Positions 31,074-58,735 of a DNA stretch of 64,000 nt are shown piece after piece. Under the pieces are notes generated by a model. The model saw only the letters and a program-made list of their open reading frames with translations, had not been told where the DNA came from and made no database searches. Each line of letters begins with the position of its first letter. Within the stretch, counting starts at the first letter, position 1. The translations under genes and the position numbers were made by a program. The stretch is taken from the sequence record HE978309, one strand, 5' to 3'. The stretch is from Enterobacteria phage GEC-3S.

Positions 31074-31277
31074 TTAACCGTATACGCGAAAGTATTCTAC
31101 TGATCCGTCGCTATACTGTTTTACATTGAATGTATTCACACCATGATTATTGCTCATAATGACATATACACTACGACGCTCATCGCTAAACGGGTTAACT
31201 GGTGCGGGTTCAATTTCAACATTAAAACCACGTTTAGCAAGTGCTTCGCCTAATTGCTTGAGTTTATCGGTAAACAT
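31074..31277 (-). CDS. Hypothetical small protein (67 aa)
   Basis: ORF with GGAGAC RBS; TAATG coupling to pseT. Confidence 0.5.
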   Translation of the reverse strand: MFTDKLKQLGEALAKRGFNVEIEPAPVNPFSDERRSVYVIMSNNHGVNTFNVKQYSDGSVEYFRVYG

Positions 31278-32155
31278 TAAAAGTCTCCGTAGTTAACCTG
31301 AAAACATTCTACACCAATTGCGCGGTACATGTCAACCACTTGATCACGGTCATCTACTGCCAACACAACATGATAACGCGGTGCAATTTCAGAGAAGAAA
31401 ATCTCTTTCTTCACTTCATGGTCAGGACGACGATCATTAGTTTCACGTTGAAAGTGATCACTAGGTTCAATACCCTGTTCACGCAGCCATTGCAGAGTAT
31501 CTTCTTCGCAAACATCCTCACGCCCTGAGCATGTAATGATACGATAACCATTATCACGATACAGTTTAAGCATTTCGATCACTTGCGGACGCGGTTTATC
31601 TTCTTTGACCTTTGTCCAGTCAAACGGATGACGACCGCCCTTATCCGCTAATGTCCCATCAATATCAAAGATCACTGCTTTCGGCAGCATGGTATTCGGT
31701 TTGTATACTTCTTGACCCATATATTCCTGCATCAGATAAAATTGGTTGCGCAAATGAGAAAGTGGAATTGCTTTCTCTCCGCGATAGAAATTACGTTTCT
31801 TTAGTGTCTCAAATGATTCATTGAACACTTGTTCAGTATACACCGCGTTAAATTCTTTTGCAAGTTTTTTGTAGAATACACGATGTTTTTCTTTCAGGTT
31901 AGTATCAGAGATAATGATACTTAATCCGCGTGATAGAGTCTCACGAGCAATCATTCTCTGAATAGACTCTACCAGCTTTTCTTTTTCCTTAGTATACTTG
32001 TATTTCAAATGTGAGTCAACACCAAACAACATAAGACGAAGGTCATCACGATTCACATTACGATAATTACTAAACCGTTTACATGTCTCCATAGCCCATG
32101 TAGTTTTACCGGACCCAGAACAACCAACGGTTAAAATCACTTCACATTTCGGCAT
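31277..32155 (-). CDS. pseT: Polynucleotide 5'-kinase / 3'-phosphatase
   Basis: P-loop GCSGSGKTT and HAD motif DIDGTL in same order as T4 Pnk; ATG at 32155 with AAGGAG. Confidence 0.9.
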   Translation of the reverse strand: MPKCEVILTVGCSGSGKTTWAMETCKRFSNYRNVNRDDLRLMLFGVDSHLKYKYTKEKEKLVESIQRMIARETLSRGLSIIISDTNLKEKHRVFYKKLAKEFNAVYTEQVFNESFETLKKRNFYRGEKAIPLSHLRNQFYLMQEYMGQEVYKPNTMLPKAVIFDIDGTLADKGGRHPFDWTKVKEDKPRPQVIEMLKLYRDNGYRIITCSGREDVCEEDTLQWLREQGIEPSDHFQRETNDRRPDHEVKKEIFFSEIAPRYHVVLAVDDRDQVVDMYRAIGVECFQVNYGDF

Positions 32156-32607
32156 TATTTCTCCTTCGGTTTGCACCGTTCCTCATTAAGTTCTTTGCGA
32201 TAATAACACATGATCAACTTACTTTCAAGTGTATATCTCTTAATATCCGCAAGCCAGACTCTGAATTTTTGGGAGTCCTCCCACGACATAGAAACTCTAG
32301 GTTTACCGTCTATTGTATCCACTTTCAGGTCAATGTCAACTTTTTCTATTGGTGCTGGTAGTGGAGGATGTAATTTCGGTTCTTGTGAATAATGGTCCAT
32401 TGTACACGAAGAAAGCACAAATACAATAGGCACAGCGAAGACATGGATTATGGAGGTCTGAAAATTCTTGTGTACTTTCTTAAACATCCAGTGTATCACG
32501 AAAATTGAAAACACCATCAGAATAATAATGCTTGCACCTATCCACAAATAATCAACCAGATTAAAATTGCTTATCTGCTCTTGCGTAGGCAATATTTCTA
32601 TGCTCAT
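32155..32607 (-). CDS. o-spanin candidate (lipobox, Pro-rich); N-terminal extent uncertain
   Basis: Lipoprotein signal MFKKVHKNFQTSIIHVFAVPIVFVLSSC then PPLPAP; full ORF has AAGGAGG RBS and ATGA coupling at 32607; possible internal start at 32487. Confidence 0.5.
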   Translation of the reverse strand: MSIEILPTQEQISNFNLVDYLWIGASIIILMVFSIFVIHWMFKKVHKNFQTSIIHVFAVPIVFVLSSCTMDHYSQEPKLHPPLPAPIEKVDIDLKVDTIDGKPRVSMSWEDSQKFRVWLADIKRYTLESKLIMCYYRKELNEERCKPKEK

Positions 32608-32927
32608 TTAGTAGCCTCCTTTAATTCTTCGGTAAACTCCTTAAATGAGTCATTAAGCTGTTTCTCTACCAACTTGGGTTTTTGTGCTACTACATAGCCT
32701 CGTGTAGCGTCTTTCATTGCTTTGTTTTGTTCTTCTGCAAACTTAGTTCTTATTCCGTACATCTCCTTTTGCAGCGAGTCTACAATCTTCATCTTTTCAT
32801 CTGTCTTTTTCTTATACTCTGTAAATTCCTGATTCAGTCGATCTACCTCCTTTTTATTTTCCCACCACATATTTCCACCTACCCCCAGCAACACAGAGAT
32901 GATAACAATGTATATCAGCTTTGACAT
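32604..32927 (-). CDS. i-spanin candidate (N-terminal TM plus coiled coil)
   Basis: MSKLIYIVIISVLLGVGG TM segment followed by charged coiled-coil region; next to lipoprotein ORF and pseT as T4 pseT.3/pseT.2. Confidence 0.55.
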   Translation of the reverse strand: MSKLIYIVIISVLLGVGGNMWWENKKEVDRLNQEFTEYKKKTDEKMKIVDSLQKEMYGIRTKFAEEQNKAMKDATRGYVVAQKPKLVEKQLNDSFKEFTEELKEATK

Positions 32928-32940
32928 ATTACCCCCAACG

Positions 32941-32970
32941 ACAAAAGGCGGGGAACTAGCCCCGCTTATT
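32941..32970 (-). terminator. Hairpin terminator after rnlA
   Basis: GGCGGGG-AACTAG-CCCCGC; U-run on minus transcript. Confidence 0.55.
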
Positions 32971-32971
32971 A

Positions 32972-34141
32972 TTACCAATCAATCTTATCTGCCGGAATCA
33001 GTTTCTTATAATTCCGTAGATAGTAAGTTTTCATTGAATCCAGAATACGGTCATAATCAAGACCATCGAATGCAATCATCAGACACATGAAAATATATGC
33101 TTGTGCATCACCATGTTTACGCGATTCGATAGTCGCATTGGATGCATATGTCTTTCTGTCTTCTCCCGCGTGTTCGTTATAAAACTCTGTTGCTGTCGTA
33201 AAGGCATTGCGAAGAATAGACCTGAATGCTTCCTCGAATAACTCGATTCGTTCCAGTGCTTCCGGTTCGCCTTCATATGCAGCACGCAAATCATCGGTTT
33301 CGCTTTCTACGACATAGTAGATCAGGTTATTAGGAAACATCGATGTGTTTTTAATGTTATGCACACCAATATACCATTCACTCTTCACTTTGAACAGTTG
33401 ACCGTCTTTAGTGCGTGCAACAATTCCTTCGATACCTTCTGCGGTCCGAACTTCATCAAGAATATTGCTAAAACGCGCTGAATCAACCTGTAACGCATTT
33501 ACCAGATGAGGACGTAGGATTGAATCGGCGAATAGCATTTGATGCGGTACATACTCTCCTGTGACGTTATGGCGTACATTCAGAAGTGTTAGCGACGGTT
33601 CAGAATATTCTACAACAATTCGGTTGCTGGGTGCTGTATATTCAAAGTTGAAAGTATAATCAGACCCAATATCGGCGATCTTAGCGCGTAGATCCGCATA
33701 CTTCTCGGAATACAGAAGACCGTTTGCTCTCTCTGCCTGGCTTGAGTATAAGGCCGCTTTAGACTTCAACTGAACATAGCCGTTATCAATGTATGTGCTT
33801 ACTAGACTACCGTCCATTTTGTCCATGACCATTTCCACATCTTCCGGCTTAAAGCGAGCGCGATCATTCTCACCTAAATTAAAAAACTTCTCCATAGGAC
33901 GAGATGCAATGCGGACCGGACTACCTTTATCGTCAATTTCAAACATGATCCCGCGACACTCTAACGCATCTGGTTTATTCCACATTTCCGGTTTGCTCAA
34001 GTACAGATAACTAAAAATGCGCATACGGGTTTGCATCGCCGTAATTTCATCTTTGTAATAGAACGTATCAGATCCGTCACATAGTGCCATCAGATTTTTG
34101 AACAATGCTAAAACTTTTTTGTTGTTTTCTTTTGTTGACAT
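32972..34141 (-). CDS. rnlA: RNA ligase 1
   Basis: Aligns with T4 Rnl1 (LF.NLM.LC; PDALECRGIMFE; VRIASRPMEKFFNL; KMDGSLVSTY KxDG). Confidence 0.85.
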   Translation of the reverse strand: MSTKENNKKVLALFKNLMALCDGSDTFYYKDEITAMQTRMRIFSYLYLSKPEMWNKPDALECRGIMFEIDDKGSPVRIASRPMEKFFNLGENDRARFKPEDVEMVMDKMDGSLVSTYIDNGYVQLKSKAALYSSQAERANGLLYSEKYADLRAKIADIGSDYTFNFEYTAPSNRIVVEYSEPSLTLLNVRHNVTGEYVPHQMLFADSILRPHLVNALQVDSARFSNILDEVRTAEGIEGIVARTKDGQLFKVKSEWYIGVHNIKNTSMFPNNLIYYVVESETDDLRAAYEGEPEALERIELFEEAFRSILRNAFTTATEFYNEHAGEDRKTYASNATIESRKHGDAQAYIFMCLMIAFDGLDYDRILDSMKTYYLRNYKKLIPADKIDW

Positions 34142-45282: not shown

Positions 45283-45963
45283 TCAACTATTTGTTTCGGC
45301 TTTTAATTGAGATATTTCTTTACACTCTTTAACTACTTTAACAAATAATGCTCTTGCTTTTGCGGCGTCAATAACAAGTAGTTTCTTGTACGCCTTCATT
45401 TTAACACTATAAGTTTGCCAAATCAAGTCTTTGGCTACCTTGTCGTGTTCGTCGATTATATTTAGAAAGCTATCTAACAACATAAACGACTCAAACGATA
45501 TAATCCGATTTTGCAGTAGTTTAAAGATACCGCTAGTTTCGGTTGCGGGATTGTATGTAATTAGCTCTTTAAGAGTAACCCCGCGTTTCTCGGAGAAGTA
45601 TACCAGACTTTTAATGTCATCGTCAAATCTTGTTGCTGCATCGGTTATCTTTCCTATGTATTCCATATAAAAGCCGTATGCGTCAACATCAGTGATTTCA
45701 CCTACCCATGCATCGGTATTAGCTACCAGATTGCTTAGGAATAAGAAGTATAATTCTCTTAGATTGTACTTTTCCGCTAATTTTGCGAAATAATACTTAT
45801 CTCTGCGTTTATTGAATGCGGCATCAGACAACCGCATCCTCCAATTGTATTTTACGCAATCATAACGCCCGTTCATATGAGCTTTCATCATGCAATATAA
45901 CATATACACAGATTTAGCATTAATTCGCATATCTGGATCTGGAGGAAGACGGTTTCTGATCAT
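45283..45963 (-). CDS. 59: Helicase loader gp59
   Basis: Aligns with T4 gp59 (KSVY.LY.M.K.HMNG.YD..KYNW.MR.SDAA; FLSNLVAN.DAW; ISFE.F.LLDSFLNIID). Confidence 0.9.
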   Translation of the reverse strand: MIRNRLPPDPDMRINAKSVYMLYCMMKAHMNGRYDCVKYNWRMRLSDAAFNKRRDKYYFAKLAEKYNLRELYFLFLSNLVANTDAWVGEITDVDAYGFYMEYIGKITDAATRFDDDIKSLVYFSEKRGVTLKELITYNPATETSGIFKLLQNRIISFESFMLLDSFLNIIDEHDKVAKDLIWQTYSVKMKAYKKLLVIDAAKARALFVKVVKECKEISQLKAETNS

Positions 45964-45972
45964 ACATACCCC

Positions 45973-46242
45973 TTAAATATCGAGAGTGTTGGTCGGTTCG
46001 TCGATCACTCCCTTCCTGAGCGTTCTATTTACTATACATTCTTGTGTGATCTTGTCAATAATGGACACCGGAATATACTTCTGATAGTGACCATATTCTA
46101 TAGAGTTTTCCTCGACAAACTGAGTTGTCGCTTCAAGATAAGTCAATCCCTCTTCAACAACCAGTTTTTCGATTGCAAGACCGTTTGCTGTTTTATTCGC
46201 GGCTTTTACCGCATGTTCATTAAGCATTGAACACCCGATCAT
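45973..46242 (-). CDS. 33: Late-transcription co-activator gp33
   Basis: IEKLVVEEGLTYLEATTQFVEENSI ... NTLDI aligns with T4 gp33 C-terminal region; N-terminus shorter than T4. Confidence 0.75.
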   Translation of the reverse strand: MIGCSMLNEHAVKAANKTANGLAIEKLVVEEGLTYLEATTQFVEENSIEYGHYQKYIPVSIIDKITQECIVNRTLRKGVIDEPTNTLDI

Positions 46243-46499: not shown

Positions 46500-47096
46500 T
46501 TAACCCTCTTTCGTCATTAATTGAAAACCACGTTCAGCTTTTGAAATTTCGCTAGGACTTAAATCGTCACCCACATATTCTAGCATCATTTCTCGGATAA
46601 TGTCAAGTGCTTTTTCATCGCCTGATTTTAACTCAAACTCAAGTTCATAGTGAGCATCTCCCATTACTTCGCCGACTTTGCAATAATAGAAAGTGTCTCT
46701 GCACATTTCCACTATACCACAACCCATATCTAGAGTCAATGACTTGCGGTATGTCATTACTTGAAGTAAAGGAACGATAAGGTCGGAGTTTACGCCTAGA
46801 CTATCAACATAGTGATAGAAATCATCCATTGTTGAAAAAGTAATTTCTTCTCGGTTGAATAGTCCAGATTCACCATCACCTATTTTGACCATGATCAATG
46901 ATCTATTAACGTCAAGTCGTGCATAAATTCCTTTTTGACGTAGAGCATGATCTTTGGTATCATAATAAAATTCGTGTTTTATAATGTTATCTCGGTCTAC
47001 GAGATTGTACCCGTCATACATTGCTACCCACAAATCACAGATTGTTTCGACGCCAATTTGTGAGTGTGCATAGTATTTTAATTCAAGTTCTTTCAT
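46500..47096 (-). CDS. CYTH-like (triphosphate tunnel metalloenzyme) domain protein
   Basis: N-terminal ELELKY (ExExK) and C-terminal YELEFELK, basic residues between, consistent with CYTH signature; function inferred. Confidence 0.55.
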   Translation of the reverse strand: MKELELKYYAHSQIGVETICDLWVAMYDGYNLVDRDNIIKHEFYYDTKDHALRQKGIYARLDVNRSLIMVKIGDGESGLFNREEITFSTMDDFYHYVDSLGVNSDLIVPLLQVMTYRKSLTLDMGCGIVEMCRDTFYYCKVGEVMGDAHYELEFELKSGDEKALDIIREMMLEYVGDDLSPSEISKAERGFQLMTKEG

Positions 47097-47106
47097 GTGT
47101 CAACCC

Positions 47107-48054
47107 TTAGAACTCACCAATTTTCTGCAACATTTTAACTAACGCATTTGTTACAAAATAGTTATAAATTTTACCGCGTGGTGCTGGTTTAGATTTTTCC
47201 CATGACTCCAGAATCTGAGTCTTAATATTGTCTGGGATGTAATCGAAATCAATAAGTTCGCGGTTTTCGTCAAAGCGTCGTGCTTCTTCCTCTGTCATTA
47301 AAGACTTTGGATCTTCGGCATCGAAAATTTGCTCTAACCATTTGGTTGCAACCGGTTTAGCTCGTTCCCCTTCCAGTCGAGAGATAATGAAATCACTACG
47401 ACACTTGACAGAAGCCACACCGTCTTTTGCGTCACCCTTAACACATTTTACCATAAGGTCTTTGTAAGGGCTACCATATTTGCATTTCTTCCATGCTTTC
47501 TGTACTGGCGCCCACTGTTTCACGTTTTTGTATTTGTGCAACTGCGTGTAGTCACCATCACCGGAGTTGATCAGCACCTGGCGACCTTCTACAGAAAACT
47601 TTTTAGTTAATACAGCGATTATATCATCCGCTTCAACTTTGTCAACCTTAATAACGTGATAAGGCATATTCTCTTTAAACTCTTCGGTGATCTTATTGAT
47701 CGCAGCAAAGATCATCTCCCAATCACGCGGATCTGCGTCTCGCTTTTCCTTACGGTTGCGTTTATAGTAAGGGGCGATATCACGTCGCCAGTAACCTTTG
47801 CTTGAATCAAAAGCAAGTACCGTAATAGGGTATTGCTCTTTGAATTTTGTCATATTATAACGCATGGTGTCAAGAATAAGATGACGGATCATGCCTTCAT
47901 TAATAGGATCTTCCGGTTTAAATGTATGCGAGATAGTAGCAATCATAAGCTGTGACATATCAATCAAATGCACACCTTCCGGCAGTTTATCTTCTGGATC
48001 ATCGAAGAAATCATTAAGTGTAGCGGTAGTTTTTGTAAACGGGTTATATGTCAT
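47107..48054 (-). CDS. rnh: RNase H / 5'-3' exonuclease (FEN-like)
   Basis: Aligns with T4 RNase H (GYWRRD.A.YYK.NR; HKYKNVKQW; DFDYIPDNI; PRGKIY.YFV). Confidence 0.9.
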   Translation of the reverse strand: MTYNPFTKTTATLNDFFDDPEDKLPEGVHLIDMSQLMIATISHTFKPEDPINEGMIRHLILDTMRYNMTKFKEQYPITVLAFDSSKGYWRRDIAPYYKRNRKEKRDADPRDWEMIFAAINKITEEFKENMPYHVIKVDKVEADDIIAVLTKKFSVEGRQVLINSGDGDYTQLHKYKNVKQWAPVQKAWKKCKYGSPYKDLMVKCVKGDAKDGVASVKCRSDFIISRLEGERAKPVATKWLEQIFDAEDPKSLMTEEEARRFDENRELIDFDYIPDNIKTQILESWEKSKPAPRGKIYNYFVTNALVKMLQKIGEF

Positions 48055-48280: not shown

Positions 48281-48288
48281 TATAAATA
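48281..48288 (+). promoter_or_regulatory. T4-type late promoter (TATAAATA) for gene 34
   Basis: Exact TATAAATA 29 nt upstream of gene 34 ATG; AAGGAG RBS. Confidence 0.6.
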
Positions 48289-48316: not shown

Positions 48317-51300
48317 ATGGCAGATTTTTCTCAACATTTCAAGGCCACATTTGGCTTTGACGCTGGTAATGAAAAGGTCGTCAATGTAGCATTGGCTGAT
48401 AAGAATGTCAACACCGATGCGGTCAACGTTGAATTTTTCAATTACCATAATGGTATTACTCAGTATGACACAACTCGCGGTTATGATCAATACGGAACTA
48501 CAATCTATCAAAACCGTCCGTATTATGCAAAAGAAGATATCACAAAACCAGCAGGTGATTTTGACCCGACTAAATGGCAAGCACTGCGCACGGACCCACG
48601 TTGGGATTATATTGCAGCAACTTCCGGTGATACTCCTTTACAGTCTGGTGATTATATCGCAGCAGATGGTCAATTTGCAAACTTGACTTTCTCTATGCCA
48701 ACTAAACCAGCAGAGGGAGACACTATAACAGTAAAAGATATCGGTGGCAAGTGTGGTGTTAACGAATTATCGTTCTTGAGTTCAGGACATGAGTTTTACC
48801 ATAACGGTAATGTGTATAACCGAAAATGGTATTGCACTACCCCGTATGCAATGAACTATTTCATCTTTGTTCGTAATCGTTGGCATGTTTATCAGACAGG
48901 AACAGAGCCACGCGGTGTGTACGCACAGCCAGCGATTGATGCTATTCAAATGCAGAATGGTGATCAGGTCTTTCGTCGTAGTTCGTTGGGTAATATTACC
49001 TTAGTGCTTCCTAAGTTTGCCAACAATGGCGACATGATCCAGACTACAGACCTTGACGGATTAACCGCAACCAACCACGTTACGGTTAAAGTTCATGAGC
49101 ACGCAGAAGAACAATCAATTGGCACGTCCGGTCTAAAAGAGATTATCGGTAAGCGTAGCGGTCATGGTGTATTCATCTTTGACAAGACGGAAAACTTATG
49201 GCGTTTGTGGGATGGTGATCAGTCTGTTCGTCTTAAACCGATCATCGATGACACTCGCTTGCAACCTAATAGCTATGTTGCCGTATTTGGTGATCGTGAT
49301 GTTACTCTGACGCTGCCGACCAATGTCGAGCCGGGTGATCGTATTCAAGTTTCTATGCAGTATATGCACGGAAACCAGAATTGCCGTATTATCACCGCCA
49401 CAGAGGATACAAAAATCCTTATGCAGAAAAACATGGTTCAGTTTCCTAAGCGTAGCGAGTACCCATTCAATGGGACCGATACATGGACGGGAGTTTCTGA
49501 ATTGTCTTTCAACGCTGCAAATGATTATGTACCTTATCTGGAGTTCTCTTATTCAGAAGGTGATGATGGTAAGAAATACTGGTTGGTGGCACATGCTCAC
49601 CCGATTGTAGAACGAGTAGATCCGACTCGTAAAGACCGTGTTGGTGTAATTGCACTGGCTACCCAGGATGAAACAAACAAAAACCATGAAGATAATCCTA
49701 GCGACGAAGTTGCGGTGACTCCAAAGGTTCTGGCTAATAAAACAGCCAACGAAACTCGACGCGGTATTGCTCGCATTGCGACTCAAGCGGAAACGCATCA
49801 AGATACTGGTTCTAACTTCCTGGATGATGTTATCGTTACGCCTAAAAAGTTAAATGACTGTGTTGCTACCGAAGCCCGTCGTGGTGTGATGGAAATTGCA
49901 ACCCAGCACGAAACCAATGAAGGTTTAGACGATACCCGCGCTATTACTCCTAAGAAATTAGAAGAACGTCGCGCTTCCGAAGATCTCGCTGGTATTGCTG
50001 AAATTGTTCAGGTTGGCGGTAGTGCTGCCGCTCGACGTGGCGAAGCTGGTACAGGGATCTATAACATCAATGACCATGCTAAAATTGTTACGCCAAAAAA
50101 CATCAACGAAGTCAAGGCGACCGAAACTTCCCGTGGTGTTGGCTATCTGGCAACTGACGCGGAAGTGCAAGGGGCTACAGAATCAACCCCGCAAGATGCT
50201 TTACTAATCACTACTCGCACGCTAACTAAACGTACTGCTACCGAATCGCGCACTGGTATCGCTGAAATTGCAACTCAGGAAGAAACAAACTTAGGTCAAA
50301 GTGATAACCATATCATCACGCCTAAAAAGCTGCATACTCGCCGCGCAACGGAAACTTTACATGGTTTAGCAGAAATTGCAACTCAACCGGAGTTTGACGC
50401 AGGTCTTGACGATGCTCGCATTTCTACCCCATTGAAGATTAAAACCTTCTTTGAGAATGCACAGCGTTTGAAAGTAGATCCGACTCAGGGGCTTAACCTT
50501 ACTGGTGATTTGTGGCAAGGTATCATGATCAGCGGTCTGGATGCAACCGAAGACACAAAAGGTGTCGCTAAAGTTGCTACTACTCAGCTTACGGATGCTG
50601 GTCAAGATGATACTACAATCATCACGCCTAAAAAGCTGCAAGGCAAAAAAGCCACCGAAGGTAAAGAAGGTATTATCCGCGTTGGTACTCAAGCCGAAAC
50701 CGTGGCTGGTACACTGGCTAATGTAGCAATTTCTCCGAAGAACTTCAAATATGTTGTTCAGACAGAGGATACATGGAAAGCAACCGAAGCGCGTCGTGGA
50801 TTCTTGAAAGTTGCTACTCAGGAAAACTGTTTTGTTGGTGACAATCTGCAAGGTTCTACTCAAGAACTAGGAAACTACCAGCATGACGGAATTGCTGTTA
50901 CCCCGAAAGGATTAAACTATGCACTTGCTAATTTCTTACCTAAGATGGCAACCGCTCAGAATAGTTTGAAATTGGGTAACGTAGAGGCCGCTAAATGGGC
51001 GCGTAGAGACATTGACCAGACCATAGAGAGCAATTACACGTTTAATAAAAACGTTAACGTGAAGGGCGATTTAGGGTGCTTAAAATCTGGTTCCTTTGAA
51101 ACTCTTTCTGTGACTAAGAACTCTACTGATGTTCCGAGTAATGGTCATCTGGTGTTGGGTAAGCGTGGAGTTGACGGTCACACCGGAATTACTCTGCATG
51201 GTACAACCGCATCGGAAGGCATGAAAAACTCGTGGTCTATTATCGTTGGTGGTACTGGAACAGCGCAAGTTGTTGATAGTGATGCTATCGCTTTCGGTCA

Positions 51301-52057
51301 AATCAATGATGGTGGAGTCGTCGAGCATTACGCCTTTGCTGTGGAACACAATGGCGACGCGACAGCATATAGAGACTTTATTGCAGGTCGTAACCTGTAT
51401 GCGAAACAAGGCGGTTTATACATTGTTGACCAGTCTAATCCGGCAATGACTCGTTCCCAAGATGGTATGCTGAATATCGGTCACGGTGGAAGTGTTAACA
51501 TCAAGGCAGGTTCTCAAAAGTTAACTACAGAGATCGCCGGACAGAAATATCAGATCGTACACGCAGGAAACGCCGACGAAGTTCTTAACCGTCAGTTTGT
51601 TAAGAATGCTGGCGATACAATGGTCGGTAAGCTGACTATGGATAATGCGCCTATTGTTTCTGTTAAGCATGAAGCTAGCGCGGCAACCGCTCCGGCAATC
51701 GGTAACATCGGTTTCTGGAATATGCGAGTTACTACCCAGAACATCAAAGAAACTTATCCAGAGAAGAAAAACGGTACTCTGATGCAATGGGGTACTGACG
51801 CGGACGGGCTTACCCAGCTTTGGTCCCCTGATGGTACTCATAAACATTATATCCGTTCCGGTACTGGTGGTCAATGGACCGCATGGGGTGAAATTTACAC
51901 CAAACAGAATAAGCCTACCGCTCAGGAAATCGGGGCAGTAGTTGCAGAAGGTGGTTTAATGAACTCTATGACGGTTCGTGATTGGATCAAAGTTGGTAAT
52001 GTTAAAATCATCGCCAATAATCTGACTCGTACCGTAGACTTTATCTGGGAAGACTAA
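48317..52057 (+). CDS. 34: Long tail fibre proximal subunit gp34
   Basis: 1246 aa (T4 1289 aa); N-terminus similar to T4 gp34; internal repeats (ETRRGIARIATQAETH / TEARRGVMEIATQHETN ...). Confidence 0.9.
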   Translation: MADFSQHFKATFGFDAGNEKVVNVALADKNVNTDAVNVEFFNYHNGITQYDTTRGYDQYGTTIYQNRPYYAKEDITKPAGDFDPTKWQALRTDPRWDYIAATSGDTPLQSGDYIAADGQFANLTFSMPTKPAEGDTITVKDIGGKCGVNELSFLSSGHEFYHNGNVYNRKWYCTTPYAMNYFIFVRNRWHVYQTGTEPRGVYAQPAIDAIQMQNGDQVFRRSSLGNITLVLPKFANNGDMIQTTDLDGLTATNHVTVKVHEHAEEQSIGTSGLKEIIGKRSGHGVFIFDKTENLWRLWDGDQSVRLKPIIDDTRLQPNSYVAVFGDRDVTLTLPTNVEPGDRIQVSMQYMHGNQNCRIITATEDTKILMQKNMVQFPKRSEYPFNGTDTWTGVSELSFNAANDYVPYLEFSYSEGDDGKKYWLVAHAHPIVERVDPTRKDRVGVIALATQDETNKNHEDNPSDEVAVTPKVLANKTANETRRGIARIATQAETHQDTGSNFLDDVIVTPKKLNDCVATEARRGVMEIATQHETNEGLDDTRAITPKKLEERRASEDLAGIAEIVQVGGSAAARRGEAGTGIYNINDHAKIVTPKNINEVKATETSRGVGYLATDAEVQGATESTPQDALLITTRTLTKRTATESRTGIAEIATQEETNLGQSDNHIITPKKLHTRRATETLHGLAEIATQPEFDAGLDDARISTPLKIKTFFENAQRLKVDPTQGLNLTGDLWQGIMISGLDATEDTKGVAKVATTQLTDAGQDDTTIITPKKLQGKKATEGKEGIIRVGTQAETVAGTLANVAISPKNFKYVVQTEDTWKATEARRGFLKVATQENCFVGDNLQGSTQELGNYQHDGIAVTPKGLNYALANFLPKMATAQNSLKLGNVEAAKWARRDIDQTIESNYTFNKNVNVKGDLGCLKSGSFETLSVTKNSTDVPSNGHLVLGKRGVDGHTGITLHGTTASEGMKNSWSIIVGGTGTAQVVDSDAIAFGQINDGGVVEHYAFAVEHNGDATAYRDFIAGRNLYAKQGGLYIVDQSNPAMTRSQDGMLNIGHGGSVNIKAGSQKLTTEIAGQKYQIVHAGNADEVLNRQFVKNAGDTMVGKLTMDNAPIVSVKHEASAATAPAIGNIGFWNMRVTTQNIKETYPEKKNGTLMQWGTDADGLTQLWSPDGTHKHYIRSGTGGQWTAWGEIYTKQNKPTAQEIGAVVAEGGLMNSMTVRDWIKVGNVKIIANNLTRTVDFIWED

Positions 52058-52090: not shown

Positions 52091-53230
52091 ATGACACAAG
52101 AGATAGAATTACGCAACACTGGAATTAGGTTTGCGCATTTCGACGAAGACTCTGCGACATTTACCAGCATTTCAGAAAATAACTCTGTGATGTATAAGCT
52201 GGAAGTGCGCGGATCTAATGCGGATTCTACCAAACCAGCAAGGATTAGATTTAATGGAGTGGAGATCGTTGGCACTGGCTATGAAAATGGCCTAAATTTT
52301 AAAGTTCTTACTCCAACTGGACAATTACACGAAGAAAAGGTATTCTATGGTCGCGGTGCTGTTTTGGCAATGCGTGATTATCTTTCTTTGCTGAAAGGTG
52401 ACTATATCATTGCGATGGCAACGCATGGAGAATTGTTTGCAGATCCGGTAAGTGATGTTGTATTTTCTAAGCTGGGATCTGTATCATTCCCGAATCACAT
52501 TTTGTTACAGCAAATGCCTCGTGTATCATATGCAGCAATTTATTCTACGAAAATGGGTAAAATTGTGTGCGAAGGGATGCAAGCAACTCACGGGGAAGGA
52601 CAAGATTCATCTATACAAATTGAGAAAGTCTATGATACTATAGATGATCTTGCTATAACAGGAACACCGCAACGATTTTTAGATTATCCGGTTGAGTATG
52701 TTAGCGAAGATGCCGAACATTTCGAGCTAATACAATGGCCTCACGATGAGATCAGCGCCCCACTTGAGGATTTTAACATAAAGGCAGGTGACAAACTATC
52801 AATATCCTTTGAATTGTTCCGTGATAGTGCCGCAGCCGCAGCCAACGTAACAGCGCGTTTCTATCACAACTACTTCACCGATGGACAATATCAAACTGGT
52901 GTTCGATACAATGCCAGCAAAAAAGATCAATGGGAAAAGTTTGAAGCAGTCTATACCGTACCGGAAGGTGTCGATAGTGTAGTAACTGGTTGTATCAGAT
53001 ATCCAACCAACTCAAGTGAAGGTATTGTTAAAATTAGAAACATACTAATAACGCCGATCAGTGGAGTCGTCAAAACTACTGGTCCTACTTCATTTGGTGT
53101 TAATGGTGTTAGAACAACTCATATTCAGGATAACGGTGATTTTACTAACCCTGTAATGAGTCTTCTTAAGCTGCCTAGAGACAATAAACATATCACATCC
53201 AACAACTTTAAAGAGTTCGATGTTGATTAA
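52091..53230 (+). CDS. 35: Long tail fibre hinge connector gp35 (by position and size)
   Basis: 379 aa (T4 gp35 372 aa), directly downstream of gene 34. Confidence 0.75.
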   Translation: MTQEIELRNTGIRFAHFDEDSATFTSISENNSVMYKLEVRGSNADSTKPARIRFNGVEIVGTGYENGLNFKVLTPTGQLHEEKVFYGRGAVLAMRDYLSLLKGDYIIAMATHGELFADPVSDVVFSKLGSVSFPNHILLQQMPRVSYAAIYSTKMGKIVCEGMQATHGEGQDSSIQIEKVYDTIDDLAITGTPQRFLDYPVEYVSEDAEHFELIQWPHDEISAPLEDFNIKAGDKLSISFELFRDSAAAAANVTARFYHNYFTDGQYQTGVRYNASKKDQWEKFEAVYTVPEGVDSVVTGCIRYPTNSSEGIVKIRNILITPISGVVKTTGPTSFGVNGVRTTHIQDNGDFTNPVMSLLKLPRDNKHITSNNFKEFDVD

Positions 53231-53241
53231 CATTTTTAACA

Positions 53242-53270
53242 AGCCGATCCATGTGGTCGGCTTTATTTTT
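53242..53270 (+). terminator. Rho-independent terminator after gene 35
   Basis: AAGCCGATCCA-TG-TGGTCGGCTT followed by TTATTTTT. Confidence 0.65.
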
Positions 53271-53392
53271 ATACAGTTGGTTAAAATGTAACCAAAACGA
53301 AGAAAGATCTTTAGAATAATAGAAAATTTGTTTCGGTTAAAAATTAGTCAGTGCCTCCGGCACGTCGCGAAGCGATATTTTTGTTAACATTC

Positions 53393-53400
53393 TATAAATA
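53393..53400 (+). promoter_or_regulatory. T4-type late promoter (TATAAATA) for gene 36
   Basis: Exact TATAAATA about 34 nt upstream of gene 36 ATG. Confidence 0.6.
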
Positions 53401-53433
53401 CTCGGAACTATAACTAATTTTTGAGGTTACTTT

Positions 53434-54924
53434 ATGGCAGATTTGAAATATGGATCTACTGTAGGTGGATCTCCCATTTGGACGCAAGGAAACTTGACGA
53501 TCCAGCCAGCGGGGGATCAGCTTTTCTACAAAGGTCATAAAATCTATACCGCTTTTGATAGACCTTCGGCTACCGATTTTGATGCTGTTAGTGCATCCGA
53601 AGGTGGCACATTTCAAAAGCAAGTTCATTTCGAGGAAGGTTTAAGCGTAGGTAGCGCATCGGCTGGAGAAACTAAAAAGAATGGTATCTTTAAAGGTCAG
53701 AGTGACGCTGCTAATTTTGACGGTGTAAGCTGGGGTTTGCATTCATGGAAGTCAATCGGCTTTGTTAATGCCCGTGATGGCGTTATTATGGCGTATATTG
53801 ACACCACAACTGGCGAATTTAAGTCTAAAGGGACTATCGAAGGGACAACCATTAAAGACACAGGTCAACGCGTCTATAGCCCTGTTAATAAACCAACGAA
53901 TAATGATTTAGATTTGGTGTCTCGTCGCGGTGATACTCTCACAGGAACATATAATTTAAACACCGTCACTGTTAAACTATCGGTTGATTCGAAATTAATT
54001 GCAAGGGAACGTGATTTAATTAATTTTGATGCGACTAAGATCTATTATGGTAACGTTCTTGATACGTTGGTCTTCCGAAGTAAAGATGAGCCTACCATTT
54101 TTGTTAATGGCAAAGAAGGTCGTTTTTATCACACCAACAATAAACCAACTAAAGCCGATGTTGGACTAGGCAATGTCACCAATGATGCACAGGTTAAACG
54201 TGCTGGTGATATTATGGAAGGTAACTTGCAAGCGCCTAGAATGTTGGCGACAAACGATCCTGCTGGTCCTAATGAATTGGTTCGTTTGAGCTACTTTGAG
54301 AGAAAATCAATGGTAGCAAATCCAACCATCATTGGAAACGTTGATTGGAACACTCTTATTAATCGCGGTATCTATCGTGTGGAAAATGCTGGATCAGGTA
54401 CTAATAAACCGTCTGATAGCTATTATAACGGCGTTTTGATGGTATATCGCCCAGAAGATGCGGTCGGTACTCGTCGAATTGTTCAGGTGTATTATCCTGA
54501 ATCTATTGACCATCCGATGTGCTGGCGTTCTTGTTCTAATGAATCATGGACTGCATGGAACTATGTAGATCACCGTAAATTAGCCGATATTCGCTATGTT
54601 AACGTAACTGGCGATACCATGACAGGACCGTTAACTGTTCCGGCTGCAAACGGTGTTAGAACAGCTAAAACTAACTATAACGGGGATAACTGTTATGCGG
54701 CGTTAAGCGGTGCTGATGGTACTGCTATGATTCACCGCATTAGTGATATTAAAGGGACCGAAAAGCTGGGGATCACCCACGACTCAAAGGTCGTGTTTTT
54801 CCGTTCTAGAAACAATACTCAAACCGTGGATCGCTATCAGCTTTATCATGAAGGTAATAAACCTACTCCGGCTGATGTTGGAGCGGTTCCACTTAATGCG
54901 GTGATTGATTTTGGTACTTTCTAA
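53434..54924 (+). CDS. 36: Long tail fibre distal connector gp36-like (enlarged)
   Basis: Position between 35 and 37; 496 aa vs 221 aa in T4; N-terminus (MADLKYG...) related to gp34/gp37 N-termini. Confidence 0.65.
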   Translation: MADLKYGSTVGGSPIWTQGNLTIQPAGDQLFYKGHKIYTAFDRPSATDFDAVSASEGGTFQKQVHFEEGLSVGSASAGETKKNGIFKGQSDAANFDGVSWGLHSWKSIGFVNARDGVIMAYIDTTTGEFKSKGTIEGTTIKDTGQRVYSPVNKPTNNDLDLVSRRGDTLTGTYNLNTVTVKLSVDSKLIARERDLINFDATKIYYGNVLDTLVFRSKDEPTIFVNGKEGRFYHTNNKPTKADVGLGNVTNDAQVKRAGDIMEGNLQAPRMLATNDPAGPNELVRLSYFERKSMVANPTIIGNVDWNTLINRGIYRVENAGSGTNKPSDSYYNGVLMVYRPEDAVGTRRIVQVYYPESIDHPMCWRSCSNESWTAWNYVDHRKLADIRYVNVTGDTMTGPLTVPAANGVRTAKTNYNGDNCYAALSGADGTAMIHRISDIKGTEKLGITHDSKVVFFRSRNNTQTVDRYQLYHEGNKPTPADVGAVPLNAVIDFGTF

Positions 54925-54994: not shown

Positions 54995-57763
54995 ATGGCA
55001 GATTTAAGCAGAATCCAATTTAAACGCACTAGCACTAAAGGTCGTAAACCTGATGCTAGTACGATGAATCCGGGGGAATTGGCAATCAACCTTGCGGATC
55101 AATATCTTCTTACTAAAAATGATTCCGGTGCTATTATCAATTTAAGTTGCCCTCCGGTGTATGACCGTGATGTTACAATGGCGGGTAAGGTTAAAGGTAA
55201 TAATTATATCTTAGGTAAAACCGCCAACTATCTGGAAGATCAGACAGCGCGAGATCTTAACTACTTTGGTGCTTTCCGTACCAATGGTCTTGATGGTTTT
55301 CTCGAACTCACGCTAAACGTTCCTCATTCTTCTGGTGTTCAGCATGGTCGAGGATTTACTTTCCAGTATGGACACACAGGAAACCGTGTAGAAACTTATG
55401 GTTATAATAAAGAAGGACAAAAAGCATTTAGCTATAAAATGTATCACGAAGGTGATAAACCAACACCCTCAGAATTGAACGTTTACAGCAAACAAGAAGT
55501 TGACCGTATGTTTGTTAAAAACGTTAAACTTGCTACAGTTCCTGGTGATATAGTTGACGGTTATTTTAAATTAGCAACTGCAATGATTCCGCAAAGCGGT
55601 CGTAGTGTATTTTTCCGTATTCATGGTGGTAACGGATATAACGTTACTGCATACGATCAAGTTGATATTGTAGAAATTGTTATTCGCAGTGGAAATAATC
55701 GTCCTAAAGGTGTTAACGTTATTGCATATCGCCGAAATACAAACAAAGCATTTGATGTTTTGGCTGTTAATACTTCTGGTGATAACTATGATATCTACGT
55801 GAAATATCAGCGTTATACTGATAACGTTATTGTTGAATTTGGTAAAAGTGTTGATGTTAATCTGGTAGTCCATGACGTTCCAGACTTTGTTGTTGATCGT
55901 CCTGCTGGCGATAATGTTATTGGCGGTCGCGCGGTAACTCTTTTTAACACCGAAAACAAACGAGGTGTGTTGAGTTTTGACGATAACACACAAAATAGTT
56001 ATGATATTGTTCACTTGAGTAATGATAGGGGTACTGGACGAAAATATATTCGTAAATTCCGTAGTAACTATAATGAAATGATCTGGCACGAGACGGTTCA
56101 AGGCGCCAGCTATCGTCTGGCTACTGGTGCAACTGATGTTCAGGAGATTCTAACCGTTGAATCTGTTAGCTCAATTGCTGGAACTCATAAAGGTAATATT
56201 ACTTCTGGCCGTATGCTGTTAAATGGTGGTAGTAATGTTATTACCTTGCGGCGTCCTGCTGGTCAATCCAACCATATTGCGTTTCAAGATAATCGTACTG
56301 GAGATATTACCCGTCAAGGATGGATCGGTTATGCCAATGCTGATACTAACGTTTTTGAATGGTATAGTGATGTAGGTGGCAGTTCTATTCGTCAACATAT
56401 CGACGGACAGATCGAATTTCAGACAGGTAGCATGAAGCGAGTTTATACTAACGGACAATTCATTTCATTATATGCCGATGGCTTCCGTACAGTATATGGA
56501 AACTATGGTTCATGGTGGCGAAATGACGGTAGTAACGTTTATCTGATGAGCACAAAATCAGGCGACACTATGGGTCCGTGGAATACCTTTAGGCCGTTCA
56601 TATACAGTCTCGCCAATGGAAACGTTACTCTAGGTGGTAGCGATGCTGGCAACCATTTAATGCGTCTCAATAATGAAAATCGTCAAGTAGAAATAAATGC
56701 AACAACACATTTAGGGTCTCGATTATATTGGGAACGTAGCGAAGGATCGGCATCTAGATTTTTTATTAAGAATTGGGGTAATGGATCTTCTCGCGCTCAA
56801 GTGTGGGAACTTGCTGACGAGACAGGTTATCATGTATATTCTCAGCGAAACGACGCGGGTGTTCTTCAATTCCGTACTGCTGGTAATTTTGAGACTGGTG
56901 GTGATGCTCAAGTAAACGGGACTTTACGTGTCACCAATGTTCTTCGAACAGATAACCAAATTCAGATTTATCGCGATAACAACAAAGAACTCTGGTTTAA
57001 GGATGCTAATGGTACTAACCGTGGTGTTATCTGGGGTGATAGCACAGGTCAAATGCGCATTCGAAACTATAACAGCGGAGAATTTGACCATGTTTTCCAG
57101 ACTGGTATGATTCGCTTAGAACGTGGGTATGCAAACGGTAGCGACCGTGGTTTGATTCGCGGAGAAGTACAAGGTGGTGCTTGGTCAGAATGGAAAACTC
57201 GCGCTGCTGGCTTATTGGTTGACTGTCCAGCTGCTCAAACTTCCGCATATAACGTATGGAAAGCGACCAAATGGGGTTTAGACCACATCGCGGCAATGGG
57301 CGTTCATGTTCCTAGTGGCGTTATTACTAATGCTATGGCACGTCTTCATATTCATACCACAAACTTTGACTTTAACGCCTCCGGTGATTTCCAAGCAGGT
57401 CGTAACGGTAATTTTAACGATGTGTATATTCGTTCTGATGCTCGCCTTAAAATCAATAAGGAAGAGTATAAGGAGAATGCCACCGATAAAGTTAATCGCT
57501 TGACGGTATACACCTATGACAAGGTTAAATCTTTAACCGACCGTACTGTCATTGCTCATGAAGTTGGTATTATTGCTCAGGATCTTGAGAAAGAATTGCC
57601 GGAAGCCGTAACAACTTCTAAGGTCGGCGATCCTGATAAGCCAGAAGAGATCTTAACAATTTCTAACTCTGCTGTCAACGCTCTTTTAATTAAGGCGTTT
57701 CAGGAAATGAGCGAAGAACTTAAAGCCGTTAAAGCTGAACTAGCGGAACTTAAAAAGAATTAA
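54995..57763 (+). CDS. 37: Long tail fibre distal subunit gp37-like with C-terminal intramolecular chaperone (S74-like) domain
   Basis: 922 aa; C-terminal YIRSDARLKINK ... resembles auto-cleaving IMC domains of phage fibres; position upstream of holin t. Confidence 0.8.
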   Translation: MADLSRIQFKRTSTKGRKPDASTMNPGELAINLADQYLLTKNDSGAIINLSCPPVYDRDVTMAGKVKGNNYILGKTANYLEDQTARDLNYFGAFRTNGLDGFLELTLNVPHSSGVQHGRGFTFQYGHTGNRVETYGYNKEGQKAFSYKMYHEGDKPTPSELNVYSKQEVDRMFVKNVKLATVPGDIVDGYFKLATAMIPQSGRSVFFRIHGGNGYNVTAYDQVDIVEIVIRSGNNRPKGVNVIAYRRNTNKAFDVLAVNTSGDNYDIYVKYQRYTDNVIVEFGKSVDVNLVVHDVPDFVVDRPAGDNVIGGRAVTLFNTENKRGVLSFDDNTQNSYDIVHLSNDRGTGRKYIRKFRSNYNEMIWHETVQGASYRLATGATDVQEILTVESVSSIAGTHKGNITSGRMLLNGGSNVITLRRPAGQSNHIAFQDNRTGDITRQGWIGYANADTNVFEWYSDVGGSSIRQHIDGQIEFQTGSMKRVYTNGQFISLYADGFRTVYGNYGSWWRNDGSNVYLMSTKSGDTMGPWNTFRPFIYSLANGNVTLGGSDAGNHLMRLNNENRQVEINATTHLGSRLYWERSEGSASRFFIKNWGNGSSRAQVWELADETGYHVYSQRNDAGVLQFRTAGNFETGGDAQVNGTLRVTNVLRTDNQIQIYRDNNKELWFKDANGTNRGVIWGDSTGQMRIRNYNSGEFDHVFQTGMIRLERGYANGSDRGLIRGEVQGGAWSEWKTRAAGLLVDCPAAQTSAYNVWKATKWGLDHIAAMGVHVPSGVITNAMARLHIHTTNFDFNASGDFQAGRNGNFNDVYIRSDARLKINKEEYKENATDKVNRLTVYTYDKVKSLTDRTVIAHEVGIIAQDLEKELPEAVTTSKVGDPDKPEEILTISNSAVNALLIKAFQEMSEELKAVKAELAELKKN

Positions 57764-57805
57764 GGAAAACTCCCAGGGAAGGGAAACTACTAAGGAGAAA
57801 CGGCT

Positions 57806-58045
57806 ATGGTCTATAATATCGTCATTGGTGCTTTGTCTAGTTTCGGAATGAAATTATTGTCAAAGTTAATTAGTGAAAAGATGCTCACTAAAATTTTCTT
57901 CTATTGCGCTCGTCGTCTTGCGGCTTATACCAATACGCCAATTGATGATCGTTTTGTGGAAGAACTTTATAAGGAGTTTAATAAAGATCAGTCAGAAGAT
58001 AGTAACGAGCAAGAGAAACCTAGTGATAGTCAACTACCTAAATAA
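57806..58045 (+). CDS. Hypothetical small protein with N-terminal hydrophobic segment (79 aa)
   Basis: ORF between gene 37 and t, where T4 has gene 38; no similarity to gp38 recognised. Confidence 0.45.
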   Translation: MVYNIVIGALSSFGMKLLSKLISEKMLTKIFFYCARRLAAYTNTPIDDRFVEELYKEFNKDQSEDSNEQEKPSDSQLPK

Positions 58046-58078: not shown

Positions 58079-58735
58079 ATGCAAGTTTCTGAAAAAGGGA
58101 AAGACTTTGCTATCTCAAATGTCCTGCGCGCTATTTTCACAACTAAAAGCACGGAGTTGCTCGTACTTCGTGTTTTTGCTGCCGTCGTGTTGTCCATATT
58201 GGCATTTGTCGTTTATAGTAAAAACGAGTTGTTTGCGCTTTATAAAGAGACTCGTTATGAGACTTATGCTCACATTCTCCAGGTAGAGAAAGACCGCAAT
58301 TTTGATAATGCAGCACAGGAGCAGTTACAGATAGTTCATGTGTCGGCTGATGCCGATTTTTCTGCTGTTTTTAGTTTTCGTCCGAAAAACCTAAACTATT
58401 TTGTTGATTTGGTGGCATATGAAGGAAAGTTGCCGCATACAATCGATGAAAAAAATTTAGGCGGATTCCCTATCAATAAAACGAGTGAAGAATATCGTAG
58501 GCATCTTTTAGGTAAATCATATTTTACCGATAAAGATTTCCAGTATATTCCATCAAGAGAAAAGAAATTAGAGAATATCGATATAGGTTTCATGTATTCT
58601 TGTCCTATATTCAATCTCGATAATGTCTATTCTGGTAGTATCGCCATTTCATGGAAGAATAAACCGGATATTGACATTGAGAATTTAGATACTCTTTGCA
58701 ATCAATCTGCCAGAATCCTCGGAAGGATTAGATAA
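58079..58735 (+). CDS. t: Holin T
   Basis: 218 aa; aligns with T4 holin (YETY; EQLQIVH.S.DADFSAV.SFRPKNLNYFVD..AYEGKLP; MYSCP.FNLDN.Y.G.I; ARILGR). Confidence 0.9.
   Translation: MQVSEKGKDFAISNVLRAIFTTKSTELLVLRVFAAVVLSILAFVVYSKNELFALYKETRYETYAHILQVEKDRNFDNAAQEQLQIVHVSADADFSAVFSFRPKNLNYFVDLVAYEGKLPHTIDEKNLGGFPINKTSEEYRRHLLGKSYFTDKDFQYIPSREKKLENIDIGFMYSCPIFNLDNVYSGSIAISWKNKPDIDIENLDTLCNQSARILGRIR

Follow-up and report, generated by a model that had tools for sequence, protein, structure and literature searches.

Enterobacteria phage GEC-3S very probably carries, between gene 36 and holin gene t, the distal-fibre and lysis end of a Krischvirus late region, in which the fibre tip is of the T2/T6/S16 kind, the adhesin gp38 is encoded at a distant locus, and the 79-residue ORF preceding t (hereafter ORF79) is a putative lysis accessory. 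The window, by which we mean the whole stretch of 64,000 nucleotides analysed here (64 kb), is that of a Krischvirus (RB49-like coliphage), and its nearest relative for the fibre region is Shigella phage JK32, with 95.3% DNA identity over the whole region. Several elements of this reading are plain observations: gp37 is a member of the S74 domain family with a conserved Ser/Lys dyad, gp38 is absent from the window and present in all relatives that were checked, and ORF79 belongs to an identifiable protein family.

The C-terminal domain of gp37

The following features were assigned to gene 37.

54995-57763, plus strand: gp37 ORF, 922 aa (reading frame)
54995..57433, plus strand: predicted mature gp37, residues 1-813, comprising the distal shaft and the gp38-docking tip (phrog_1699 match)
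57434..57763, plus strand: gp37 Peptidase_S74/intramolecular chaperone domain, residues 814-922 plus stop codon (Pfam PF13884)
57434-57436 and 57449-57451, plus strand: codons of gp37 catalytic Ser814 and of Lys819, respectively (alignment to K1F, T5 and S16)

The first-pass annotation had proposed that gp37 ends in an S74-like chaperone domain, and this proposal was borne out by profile searches. While gp37 matches phrog_1699, 'long tail fiber protein distal subunit' (E 7e-184), and residues 441-537 are covered by Pfam Gp34_trimer, residues 814-873 of the 922 match Peptidase_S74 (PF13884; E 9.8e-12, 45.4 bits at a cut-off of 22), a match located at the extreme C-terminus of the fibre protein, as is characteristic of the family. 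The segment YIRSDARLK (residues 811-819) contains both Ser814 and Lys819, the lysine lying five residues downstream of the cleavage-site serine as in the S74 dyad. In the alignment to S74 domains that had been suggested as a check, the two residues coincide with Ser911/Lys916 of K1F endoNF and with Ser1264/Lys1269 of T5 pb1, whose roles have been described (PMC4690869); for pb1, the S1264A mutant established the catalytic role of Ser1264, and residue 1263 is the last of the mature protein (PMC4690869). Further, the C-terminal 116 residues match S16 gp37 (PDB 6F45_A, E 7.8e-5), a match that arose only with the C-terminal 200 residues of gp37 as sole query, the single match of full-length gp37 in a phmmer search of the PDB being a Gp34_trimer-like shaft segment. 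As regards the fold of the family, which has a beta-hairpin tentacle and a C-terminal coiled coil in the trimer, the C-terminal helix can be aligned, by sequence, with the helices of S16, T5 and K1F, and AlphaFold2, given the chaperone domain sequence alone, produced a model of too low confidence to be usable (pLDDT 47.6). On this comparative evidence YIRSDARLK at the gp37 C-terminus is no chance motif, the scissile bond is predicted to be Arg813|Ser814, and we infer that gp37 is indeed cleaved in GEC-3S.

Comparison with RB49 revealed a sharp difference between the chaperone domain and the shaft. Over the last 110 codons of gene 37 there are 11 synonymous changes and 1 non-synonymous change, and residues 806-922 are 97-100% identical at the amino acid level, whereas identity in shaft segments falls to 7-40%; the shaft, from about residue 160 to 800, is a mosaic relative to that of RB49, and the whole protein has 922 residues vs. 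979. These patterns indicate strong purifying selection on the chaperone domain while the shaft diverges, the shaft difference being, as judged from the alignments, ordinary allelic and recombinational variation. They also bear on the idea that the S74 domain has lost its activity and, as a relic, still assists folding, stays uncleaved and remains on the virion fibre. We consider this scarcely credible, given that the Ser/Lys pair is preserved together with its motif (one position differs from T2), that purifying selection on the domain is strong, and that an uncleaved chaperone, which blocks receptor binding in T5 (PMC4690869), would on gp37 also fill the gp38-docking tip.

The fibre tip, gp36 and the relocated adhesin gene

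The first-pass annotation had concluded that fibre assembly and receptor recognition probably differ from both T4 and T2, a claim that holds for T4 and is unsupported for T2. T4 shares with GEC-3S homologous gp34, gp35, gp36 N-terminus, gp37 N-terminus and holin t in the same order, but its gp37 has no S74 domain and binds the receptor with the needle tip itself, and its gp38 is an unrelated non-structural assembly chaperone (phrog_105) with no homologue in the window. T2 gp37, by contrast, carries NVYIRSDIRLK with Ser1243 in a Pfam S74 domain (E 3.3e-15), the same VYIRSD.RLK-type motif as in GEC-3S, and the last ~235 residues of GEC-3S gp37 are 34% identical to the T2 C-terminus (E 1e-25), a stretch that includes ~140 residues preceding the cleavage site. 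Since T2 gp37 combines this motif with an S74 domain, the GEC-3S tip would work as in T2, T6 and S16 (PDB 6F45), where a cleaved gp37 C-terminal chaperone is likewise combined with a gp38 adhesin, and would differ from T4 alone. The arrangement departs from these phages in gene order and in gp36: T2, T6 and S16 have their gene 38 in the space from 37 to t, whereas in Krischvirus it is ~50 kb off and a P18-like gene stands there, and gp36 has 496 residues in GEC-3S compared with about 220 in the other three. Within the genus, RB49 and other Krischvirus (Phi1, JSE, JK32) have the same order of 36, 37, Dc5 (the RB49 name of ORF79) and t, with g38 relocated; identities to RB49 amount to 99.8% for gp36, 95% for Dc5, 100% for t and 97-100% for the gp37 chaperone domain.

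Upstream of gene 37 two further features are of relevance.

53393..53400, plus strand: T4-type late promoter motif TATAAATA, 34 nt 5' of gene 36
53434..54924, plus strand: gp36, long-tail-fibre distal connector subunit, 496 aa (phrog_16472, phrog_1425)

That gp36 is more than twice as long as its T4 counterpart, as had been noticed at the outset, is correct (496 vs. 221 aa, 2.2-fold). The N-terminal 171 residues are 37% identical to T4 gp36, phrog_16472 spans the full length of the protein, and phrog_1425 is the 'hinge connector ... distal connector' family. RB49p250, likewise of 496 residues, is 99.8% identical, and by these comparisons the long gp36 is a genus-wide and already annotated property. 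The TATAAATA motif is not enriched across the window (7 found vs. 5.9 expected), so that only the copies directly before genes 34 (at 48281) and 36 are noteworthy; the latter is a candidate promoter of a 36-37-ORF79-t transcript. A terminator-like hairpin follows gene 35 (53241-53263). The spaces that separate gene 37, ORF79 and t contain no late-promoter motif, and a single weak terminator-like site lies upstream, on the other strand.

A gp38 homolog had not been apparent at first reading, and none of either type is in fact encoded in the 64-kb window: RB49 gp38 gave zero tblastn matches against it at E<=10, the JK32 and T4 gp38 queries gave short matches alone (E>=0.66), and the slot 3' of gene 37 holds the 79-aa P18-like ORF, not gene 38. 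The further implication that the phage lacks gp38 finds no support in comparison with its relatives. A 258-259-aa adhesin is encoded at a distant locus in RB49 (45367-46143), JK32 (47037-47816), Phi1, JEP8, Ec_Makalu_002, ELT4 and every other close relative checked; that of JK32 matches Pfam GP38 (E 3.7e-73) and Gp38_N, and its N-terminal 141 residues are 64.5% identical to those of T2 gp38. The window extends from gp24/gp23 to gene 52, and on the circular map ~50 kb separate each of its ends from the gp38 of the relatives. This relocation has already been published (PMC3157838, Trojet 2011; PMC9569957, Efimov 2022; bioRxiv 10.64898/2026.04.02.716166), with a distance of ~55 kb between gp37 and gp38 reported for Krischvirus (bioRxiv 10.64898/2026.04.02.716166), and RB49 gp37 has been described as bearing a self-cleaving chaperone after whose action gp38 attaches (PMC9569957). 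The displacement of gene 38 is, as already known, a matter of gene order at the level of the genus and not one of mechanism. For GEC-3S itself we infer the presence of gp38, from the relatives only, together with its docking.

Direct receptor binding by S74-bearing fibres is known, for example from T5 pb1 (PMC4690869), and a fibre without gp38 is conceivable in which the gp37 tip, exposed by chaperone cleavage, itself contacts the receptor in the manner of T5 pb1 or K1F endosialidase. Both the absence of gp38 from the 64-kb window and the high variability of the gp37 shaft among relatives are in line with it. K1F endosialidase and T5 pb1 do share with gp37 the S74 family, the Ser and Lys dyad and the C-terminal helix; their mature proteins bind or cleave the receptor, whereas in GEC-3S the tip is proposed to be the docking site of an adhesin. 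We regard direct binding as very improbable, because a GP38-family adhesin occurs in all close relatives at a locus outside the span of the window, host-range mutations of RB49 are located in gp38 (PMC9569957), and the pre-cleavage gp37 tip can be aligned to the tip in T2, whose adhesin is a gp38.

ORF79 and the lysis genes

The gene that occupies the position of gene 38 and its downstream neighbour are as follows.

57806..58045, plus strand: ORF79, 79 aa, homologue of PM2 P18/Gp l (phrog_402)
58079..58735, plus strand: Holin T (Pfam Phage_holin_T, E 4.5e-61)

ORF79 lies between gene 37 and holin gene t, is preceded by a strong Shine-Dalgarno sequence, AAGGAGAA, ~8 nt upstream, and ends 33 nt before t, with which it appears to be co-transcribed; the holin is 48.5% identical to T4 t and 100% to RB49 t. 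The first-pass annotation had described this ORF as a 79-aa protein unlike gp38, and both its length and the lack of similarity stand. No match to RB49 or JK32 gp38 was obtained by BLASTP at E<=100, and ORF79 shows neither the Gp38_N docking domain nor the glycine-rich C-terminal domain of a T2-type adhesin (Pfam GP38), the predicted structure being all-helical. The comparison of profiles, which had been advised for this protein, gave T4 gp38 a probability of 0.3% against the ORF79 family and PM2 Gp l one of 91.6% (hhalign, E 8e-7). Moreover, ORF79 matches phrog_402 (E 5.5e-20), into which PM2 Gp l also falls (E 8e-14), and Pfam PF26925 (Phage_PM2_Gpl) is precomputed for proteins 91-94% identical to ORF79; searches of NCBIfam and of a Pfam copy without PF26925 gave zero matches, and a literature search on PF26925 found nothing. 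By profile similarity, then, ORF79 is in the PM2 P18/Gp l family, in keeping with P18 homologues reported in RB49 and Felix O1 (PMC1950889, 2007). AlphaFold2, run on a 25-sequence alignment, predicted three helices with a mean pLDDT of 68.8, and a Foldseek search of the PDB with this model returned no match at E<1, a result that excludes a gp38-like beta fold and is otherwise uninformative. By this model ORF79 would be a small three-helix protein; it is probably membrane-associated.

The position of ORF79 leaves room for a different interpretation, in which it is a specialised fibre chaperone or adhesin-like factor in the canonical place of gp38, and for the small ORFs after g37 of phage Aeh1 a chaperone possibility was raised by Trojet et al. 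2011 (PMC3157838). ORF79 is immediately 3' of gene 37 and apparently on the same late transcript, in Felixounavirus and Kolesnikvirus a homologue follows immediately on a tail-fibre gene, and BLASTP gave a 19-aa match to T4 gp38 (EELYKEF; pairwise E 0.001). We rejected this match as chance: in addition to the profile probability of 0.3%, it misses every invariant residue of the ORF79 family (T42, T44, D47, D48 and F50 are all mismatched), and the two proteins belong to different PHROGs (phrog_105 and phrog_402). The residues in question form the motif T-x-T-x-x-D-D-x-F, invariant among the tailed-phage members of the family, most of which PM2 Gp l lacks. Further, the family includes P18, a lysis protein of PM2, which is a phage without tail fibres; members follow endolysins in Vibrio phages; the predicted three-helix structure has no match in the PDB; and the Felixounavirus fibre beside the ORF79 homologue has no S74 domain, which means that no consistent fibre type accompanies the family. 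A role in the fibre is therefore very unlikely, if a shade less so than the two alternatives for gp37, and we treat ORF79 as no part of the fibre.

The reading we prefer, that ORF79 is probably an accessory lysis protein, draws by analogy on homology to one characterised protein, P18 of a tailless phage, which is required for outer-membrane disruption (PMC6356626, PMC9502842). Like ORF79, PM2 P18/Gp l (Corticoviridae) is encoded where a late operon ends, with a holin-type gene as its neighbour. It differs in length (51 vs. 79 aa), ORF79 being extended by a hydrophobic helix at the N-terminus and by an acidic tail. Adjoining holin t, ORF79 takes a lysis-cassette position, though this pattern is not universal in the family: in Vibrio phages and marine contigs the gene immediately before a member encodes an endolysin, from one or the other of two families, whereas in 7-11-like, GAP52 and LAh_8 phages homologues lie inside the head-tail module with no annotated lysis neighbour. 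In Felix O1-like phages the P18-like protein is partnered by a P17-like protein with a transmembrane helix and a coiled coil. PM2 has P17 and P18 only, while GEC-3S has an endolysin-holin-spanin system as well.

The possibility that ORF79 replaces missing spanins was rejected, because homologues of pseT.3 and pseT.2 form a canonical spanin pair in the window; with this pair present, an outer-membrane role for ORF79 would be redundant. ORF79 may rather act in holin regulation or envelope destabilisation than in simple spanin redundancy. That it is a working lysis factor beside the holin, antiholin, endolysin and two-component spanin of a T4-like phage is a tentative proposal, which we hold to be somewhat less probable than its opposite.

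Proposed course of tip assembly and its implications

Cumulatively, our findings are consistent with the following course of events. A 922-aa gp37 precursor would be made, in which the last 109 residues (814-922), as an intramolecular chaperone of the S74 type, nucleate both the trimerisation and the folding of the fibre, starting C-terminally. Ser814, activated by Lys819, would then cleave the Arg813-Ser814 bond and the chaperone would depart, whereupon one copy of gp38, presumably encoded ~50 kb away beyond the window as in Krischvirus generally, could use its N-terminal domain to dock on the trimeric gp37 tip now exposed, and recognise the receptor. The long gp36 (496 aa) would meet the N-terminus of gp37 and may compensate for the shorter gp37 shaft, and ORF79 would most likely act with holin t as an accessory lysis factor.

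The fibre-tip features of GEC-3S are real, but they are those of the already known and published RB49-type end, and their significance beyond correct annotation is slight. The appropriate annotation for the small gene preceding t is that of a putative lysis protein of the PM2 P18 kind and not that of a fibre factor; if ORF79 does function in lysis, it would belong to a widespread, uncharacterised accessory lysis module of tailed phages. For RB49-like phages, a gene 38 missing beside gene 37 does not mean a missing adhesin, and the receptor specificity of Krischvirus is to be read from the relocated gp38.

The tail fibre gene block

The window belongs by megablast to the genus Krischvirus (RB49-like Straboviridae). 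It begins at the capsid genes for gp24/gp23 and reaches the topoisomerase region around gene 52; its left end corresponds to ~96 kb of 164 kb on phage Phi1 and its right end to ~161 kb on E26 (164.6 kb). By megablast, the 3 kb under study (54995–58045) shares 95.3% identity with Shigella phage JK32 and, over its full length, 88–92% with JEP8, Ec_Makalu_002 and ELT4. Genes 34, 35, 36, 37, the 79-aa ORF and t form a colinear block, in which all gp and holin names agree with PHROG and Pfam:

48317–52057, plus strand: gp34, 1246 aa
52091–53230, plus strand: gp35, 379 aa
53434–54924, plus strand: gp36, 496 aa
54995–57763, plus strand: gp37, 922 aa
57806–58045, plus strand: 79-aa ORF, phrog_402
58079–58735, plus strand: holin t, 218 aa

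T4-type late promoter motifs TATAAATA lie closely 5' of genes 34 and 36. Between genes 35 and 36 there are 203 nt (53231–53433), which contain a terminator-like hairpin with a 9-bp stem (53241–53263) and, after it, TATAAATA at 53393–53400; composite terminator-plus-promoter motifs are known from T4-like phages (PMC4122927). Gene 37, the 79-aa ORF and t have no late promoter motif or comparable terminator-like hairpin between them and therefore look like one late transcript. A strong Shine-Dalgarno sequence precedes the 79-aa ORF. Within gp35 (52091–53230), aa 66–133 resemble Pfam ILEI weakly and below threshold (E 4.4e-4, 21 bits vs. a cut-off of 27), which is probably not meaningful.

The gp37 chaperone domain and the distal fibre

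That gp37 ends in an S74-like chaperone domain, as the first-pass annotation had proposed, is borne out by a Pfam Peptidase_S74 match to aa 814–873 (45.4 bits, cut-off 22, E 9.8e-12) and by the motif YIRSDARLK at aa 811–819. When gp37 was aligned with S74 domains using MAFFT, Ser814/Lys819 fell on the catalytic residues of K1F endosialidase (Ser911/Lys916) and T5 pb1 (Ser1264/Lys1269). In T5 pb1 the catalytic residue is Ser1264: the S1264A substitution blocks cleavage, and residue 1263 is the last of the mature chain (PMC4690869). The corresponding cut in gp37 is predicted between Arg813 and Ser814, which would yield a mature gp37 of 813 aa and a released chaperone of 109 aa. The last 116 aa further resemble gp37 of S16 as found in PDB 6F45 (E 7.8e-5), and tblastn with the chaperone domain retrieved 1446 phage records, mostly Straboviridae gp37 and fibres of T5-like phages; a single-sequence AlphaFold model of the domain was of poor quality. 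Relative to RB49 the domain is 97–100% identical (11 synonymous codon differences, 1 non-synonymous), while identity in shaft segments falls to 7–40%, a pattern which indicates that the chaperone domain is a selected, functional module.

The shaft itself (window 55475–57400, aa ~160–800) shows strong mosaicism. Its identity to RB49 falls as low as 7% in blocks of 40 alignment columns, with indels around aa 520–685; against JK32, gp37 differs only at aa ~520–645, and both ends are >95% conserved. This mosaicism fits recombinational shuffling of fibre segments.

T2 gp37 (1341 aa) contains the motif NVYIRSDIRLK, whose serine is Ser1243, as well as a Pfam S74 domain (E 3.3e-15), and its last ~235 aa are 34% identical to the window gp37 (E 1e-25), whereas T4 gp37 lacks an S74 domain, which argues, by homology, for a fibre tip of the T2/T6/S16 type. 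The earlier suggestion that the fibre differs from that of T2 is thus contradicted; only gene order differs. The claim that gp36 is more than twice its T4 length was correct (496 vs. 221 aa, 2.2 times), and this length is genus-wide, with RB49p250 also at 496 aa (99.8% identity); T4 gp36 is homologous to the first 171 aa. Summing protein lengths, with window and T2 gp37 counted in their predicted mature form, gp36 plus mature gp37 amount to 1309 residues per chain in the window, 1247 in T4 and 1461 in T2 (219 + 1242). Thus the distal half-fibre is of ordinary size, with mass moved from gp37 to gp36.

Location of gp38

The absence of an apparent gp38, as first reported, holds for the window and not for the genus. 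RB49 gp38 as a tblastn query gave no match within the window, and JK32 and T4 gp38 gave only short matches there (E at least 0.66). In RB49, however, the gene lies at 45367–46143 on the opposite strand (258 aa, annotated "g38; similar to T2 and RB69 gp38 adhesin"), surrounded by early-type small genes, and tblastn found full-length homologues in JK32 (47037–47816), JEP8, Ec_Makalu_002, ELT4 and every other close relative listed. JK32 gp38 contains the Pfam domains GP38 (E 3.7e-73) and Gp38_N (E 6e-18), and over its first 141 aa it shares 64.5% identity with T2 gp38; T4 gp38 is a chaperone unrelated to this adhesin. As judged by these comparisons, gp38 is absent from the window and present in Krischvirus, at a locus which, positioned from relatives on the circularly permuted map, is ~50 kb past either window end. 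Its relocation in RB49-type phages has already been published by Trojet et al. (PMC3157838) and Efimov et al. (PMC9569957), the latter mapping host-range mutations to gp38, and a preprint (bioRxiv 10.64898/2026.04.02.716166) gives its distance from gp37 as ~55 kb for five Krischvirus phages. Neighbours of the relocated gene (RB49 45367–46143; JK32 locus L011 3001–3780) are small hypothetical genes, and it is carried on the strand of the early genes, surroundings that are unusual for a structural gene expressed late.

The 79-aa ORF and its putative lysis role

As had been claimed, the 79-aa ORF is unlike gp38: it has no detectable relation to either kind and falls in phrog_402 (E 5.5e-20). It is annotated "Dc5" in RB49 and JK32, and proteins 91–94% identical to it carry Pfam PF26925 (Phage_PM2_Gpl). 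PM2 Gp l (protein P18, 51 aa) itself falls in phrog_402 (E 8e-14) and matches the 25-member family alignment of the ORF with an hhalign probability of 91.6%. In PM2, P18 is needed for outer-membrane disruption and P17 is the holin (PMC6356626, PMC9502842); RB49 and Felix O1 were earlier reported by Krupovic and Bamford (PMC1950889) to have homologues of P18. Common to the family are a hydrophobic helix at the N-terminus (Kyte-Doolittle maxima of 1.3–2.1 over 19 residues), the motif T-x-T-x-x-D-D-x-F and an invariant Glu. AlphaFold models the ORF as three helices with moderate confidence, and this predicted structure had no structural match in PDB. Cumulatively, the sequence observations of the first-pass annotation are confirmed and its interpretation is partly wrong; everything of substance in the finding is already in the literature.

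In Krischvirus the P18-like gene is immediately 5' of holin t. In Vibrio phages and marine metagenome contigs it is immediately 3' of a GH108 or Phage_lysozyme endolysin:

L004 3480–4213: P18-like gene after endolysin (GH108 with PG_binding_3)
L012 2391–3213: P18-like gene after endolysin
L015 3479–4210: P18-like gene after endolysin (Phage_lysozyme, PF00959)

This placement behind endolysins of two families supports a tie to lysis. In 7-11, GAP52 and LAh_8 the gene is inside the head-tail module. In Felixounavirus and Kolesnikvirus the order is tail fibre, P18-like gene, and then a transmembrane, coiled-coil protein:

L003 (Escherichia phage VpaE1) 3992–4558 and L006 (Erwinia phage phiEa104) 3992–4536: P18-like gene followed by a protein of 111–123 aa, phrog_4038

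In this phrog_4038 protein of Felix O1-like phages, a transmembrane helix at the N-terminus is combined with a long coiled coil, an architecture equal to that of PM2 holin P17.

Homologues of T4 pseT.3 and pseT.2 are also present (32155–32978, minus strand), so that canonical two-component spanins are encoded besides the P18-like gene:

32604–32978, minus strand: ORF of pseT.3-like i-spanin, likely start at MSKLIYIV
within ORF 32155–32607, minus strand: pseT.2-like o-spanin, lipobox-like VLSSC
31277–32176: pseT, adjoining the spanin genes
32972–34141: rnlA, adjoining the spanin genes

The 79-aa ORF is most likely an accessory lysis factor, and its role would therefore come on top of that of the spanins. 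In Felix O1-like phages, the P18-like and phrog_4038 proteins, now annotated as hypothetical, may form a P17/P18-like lysis pair that closes the tail-fibre operon.
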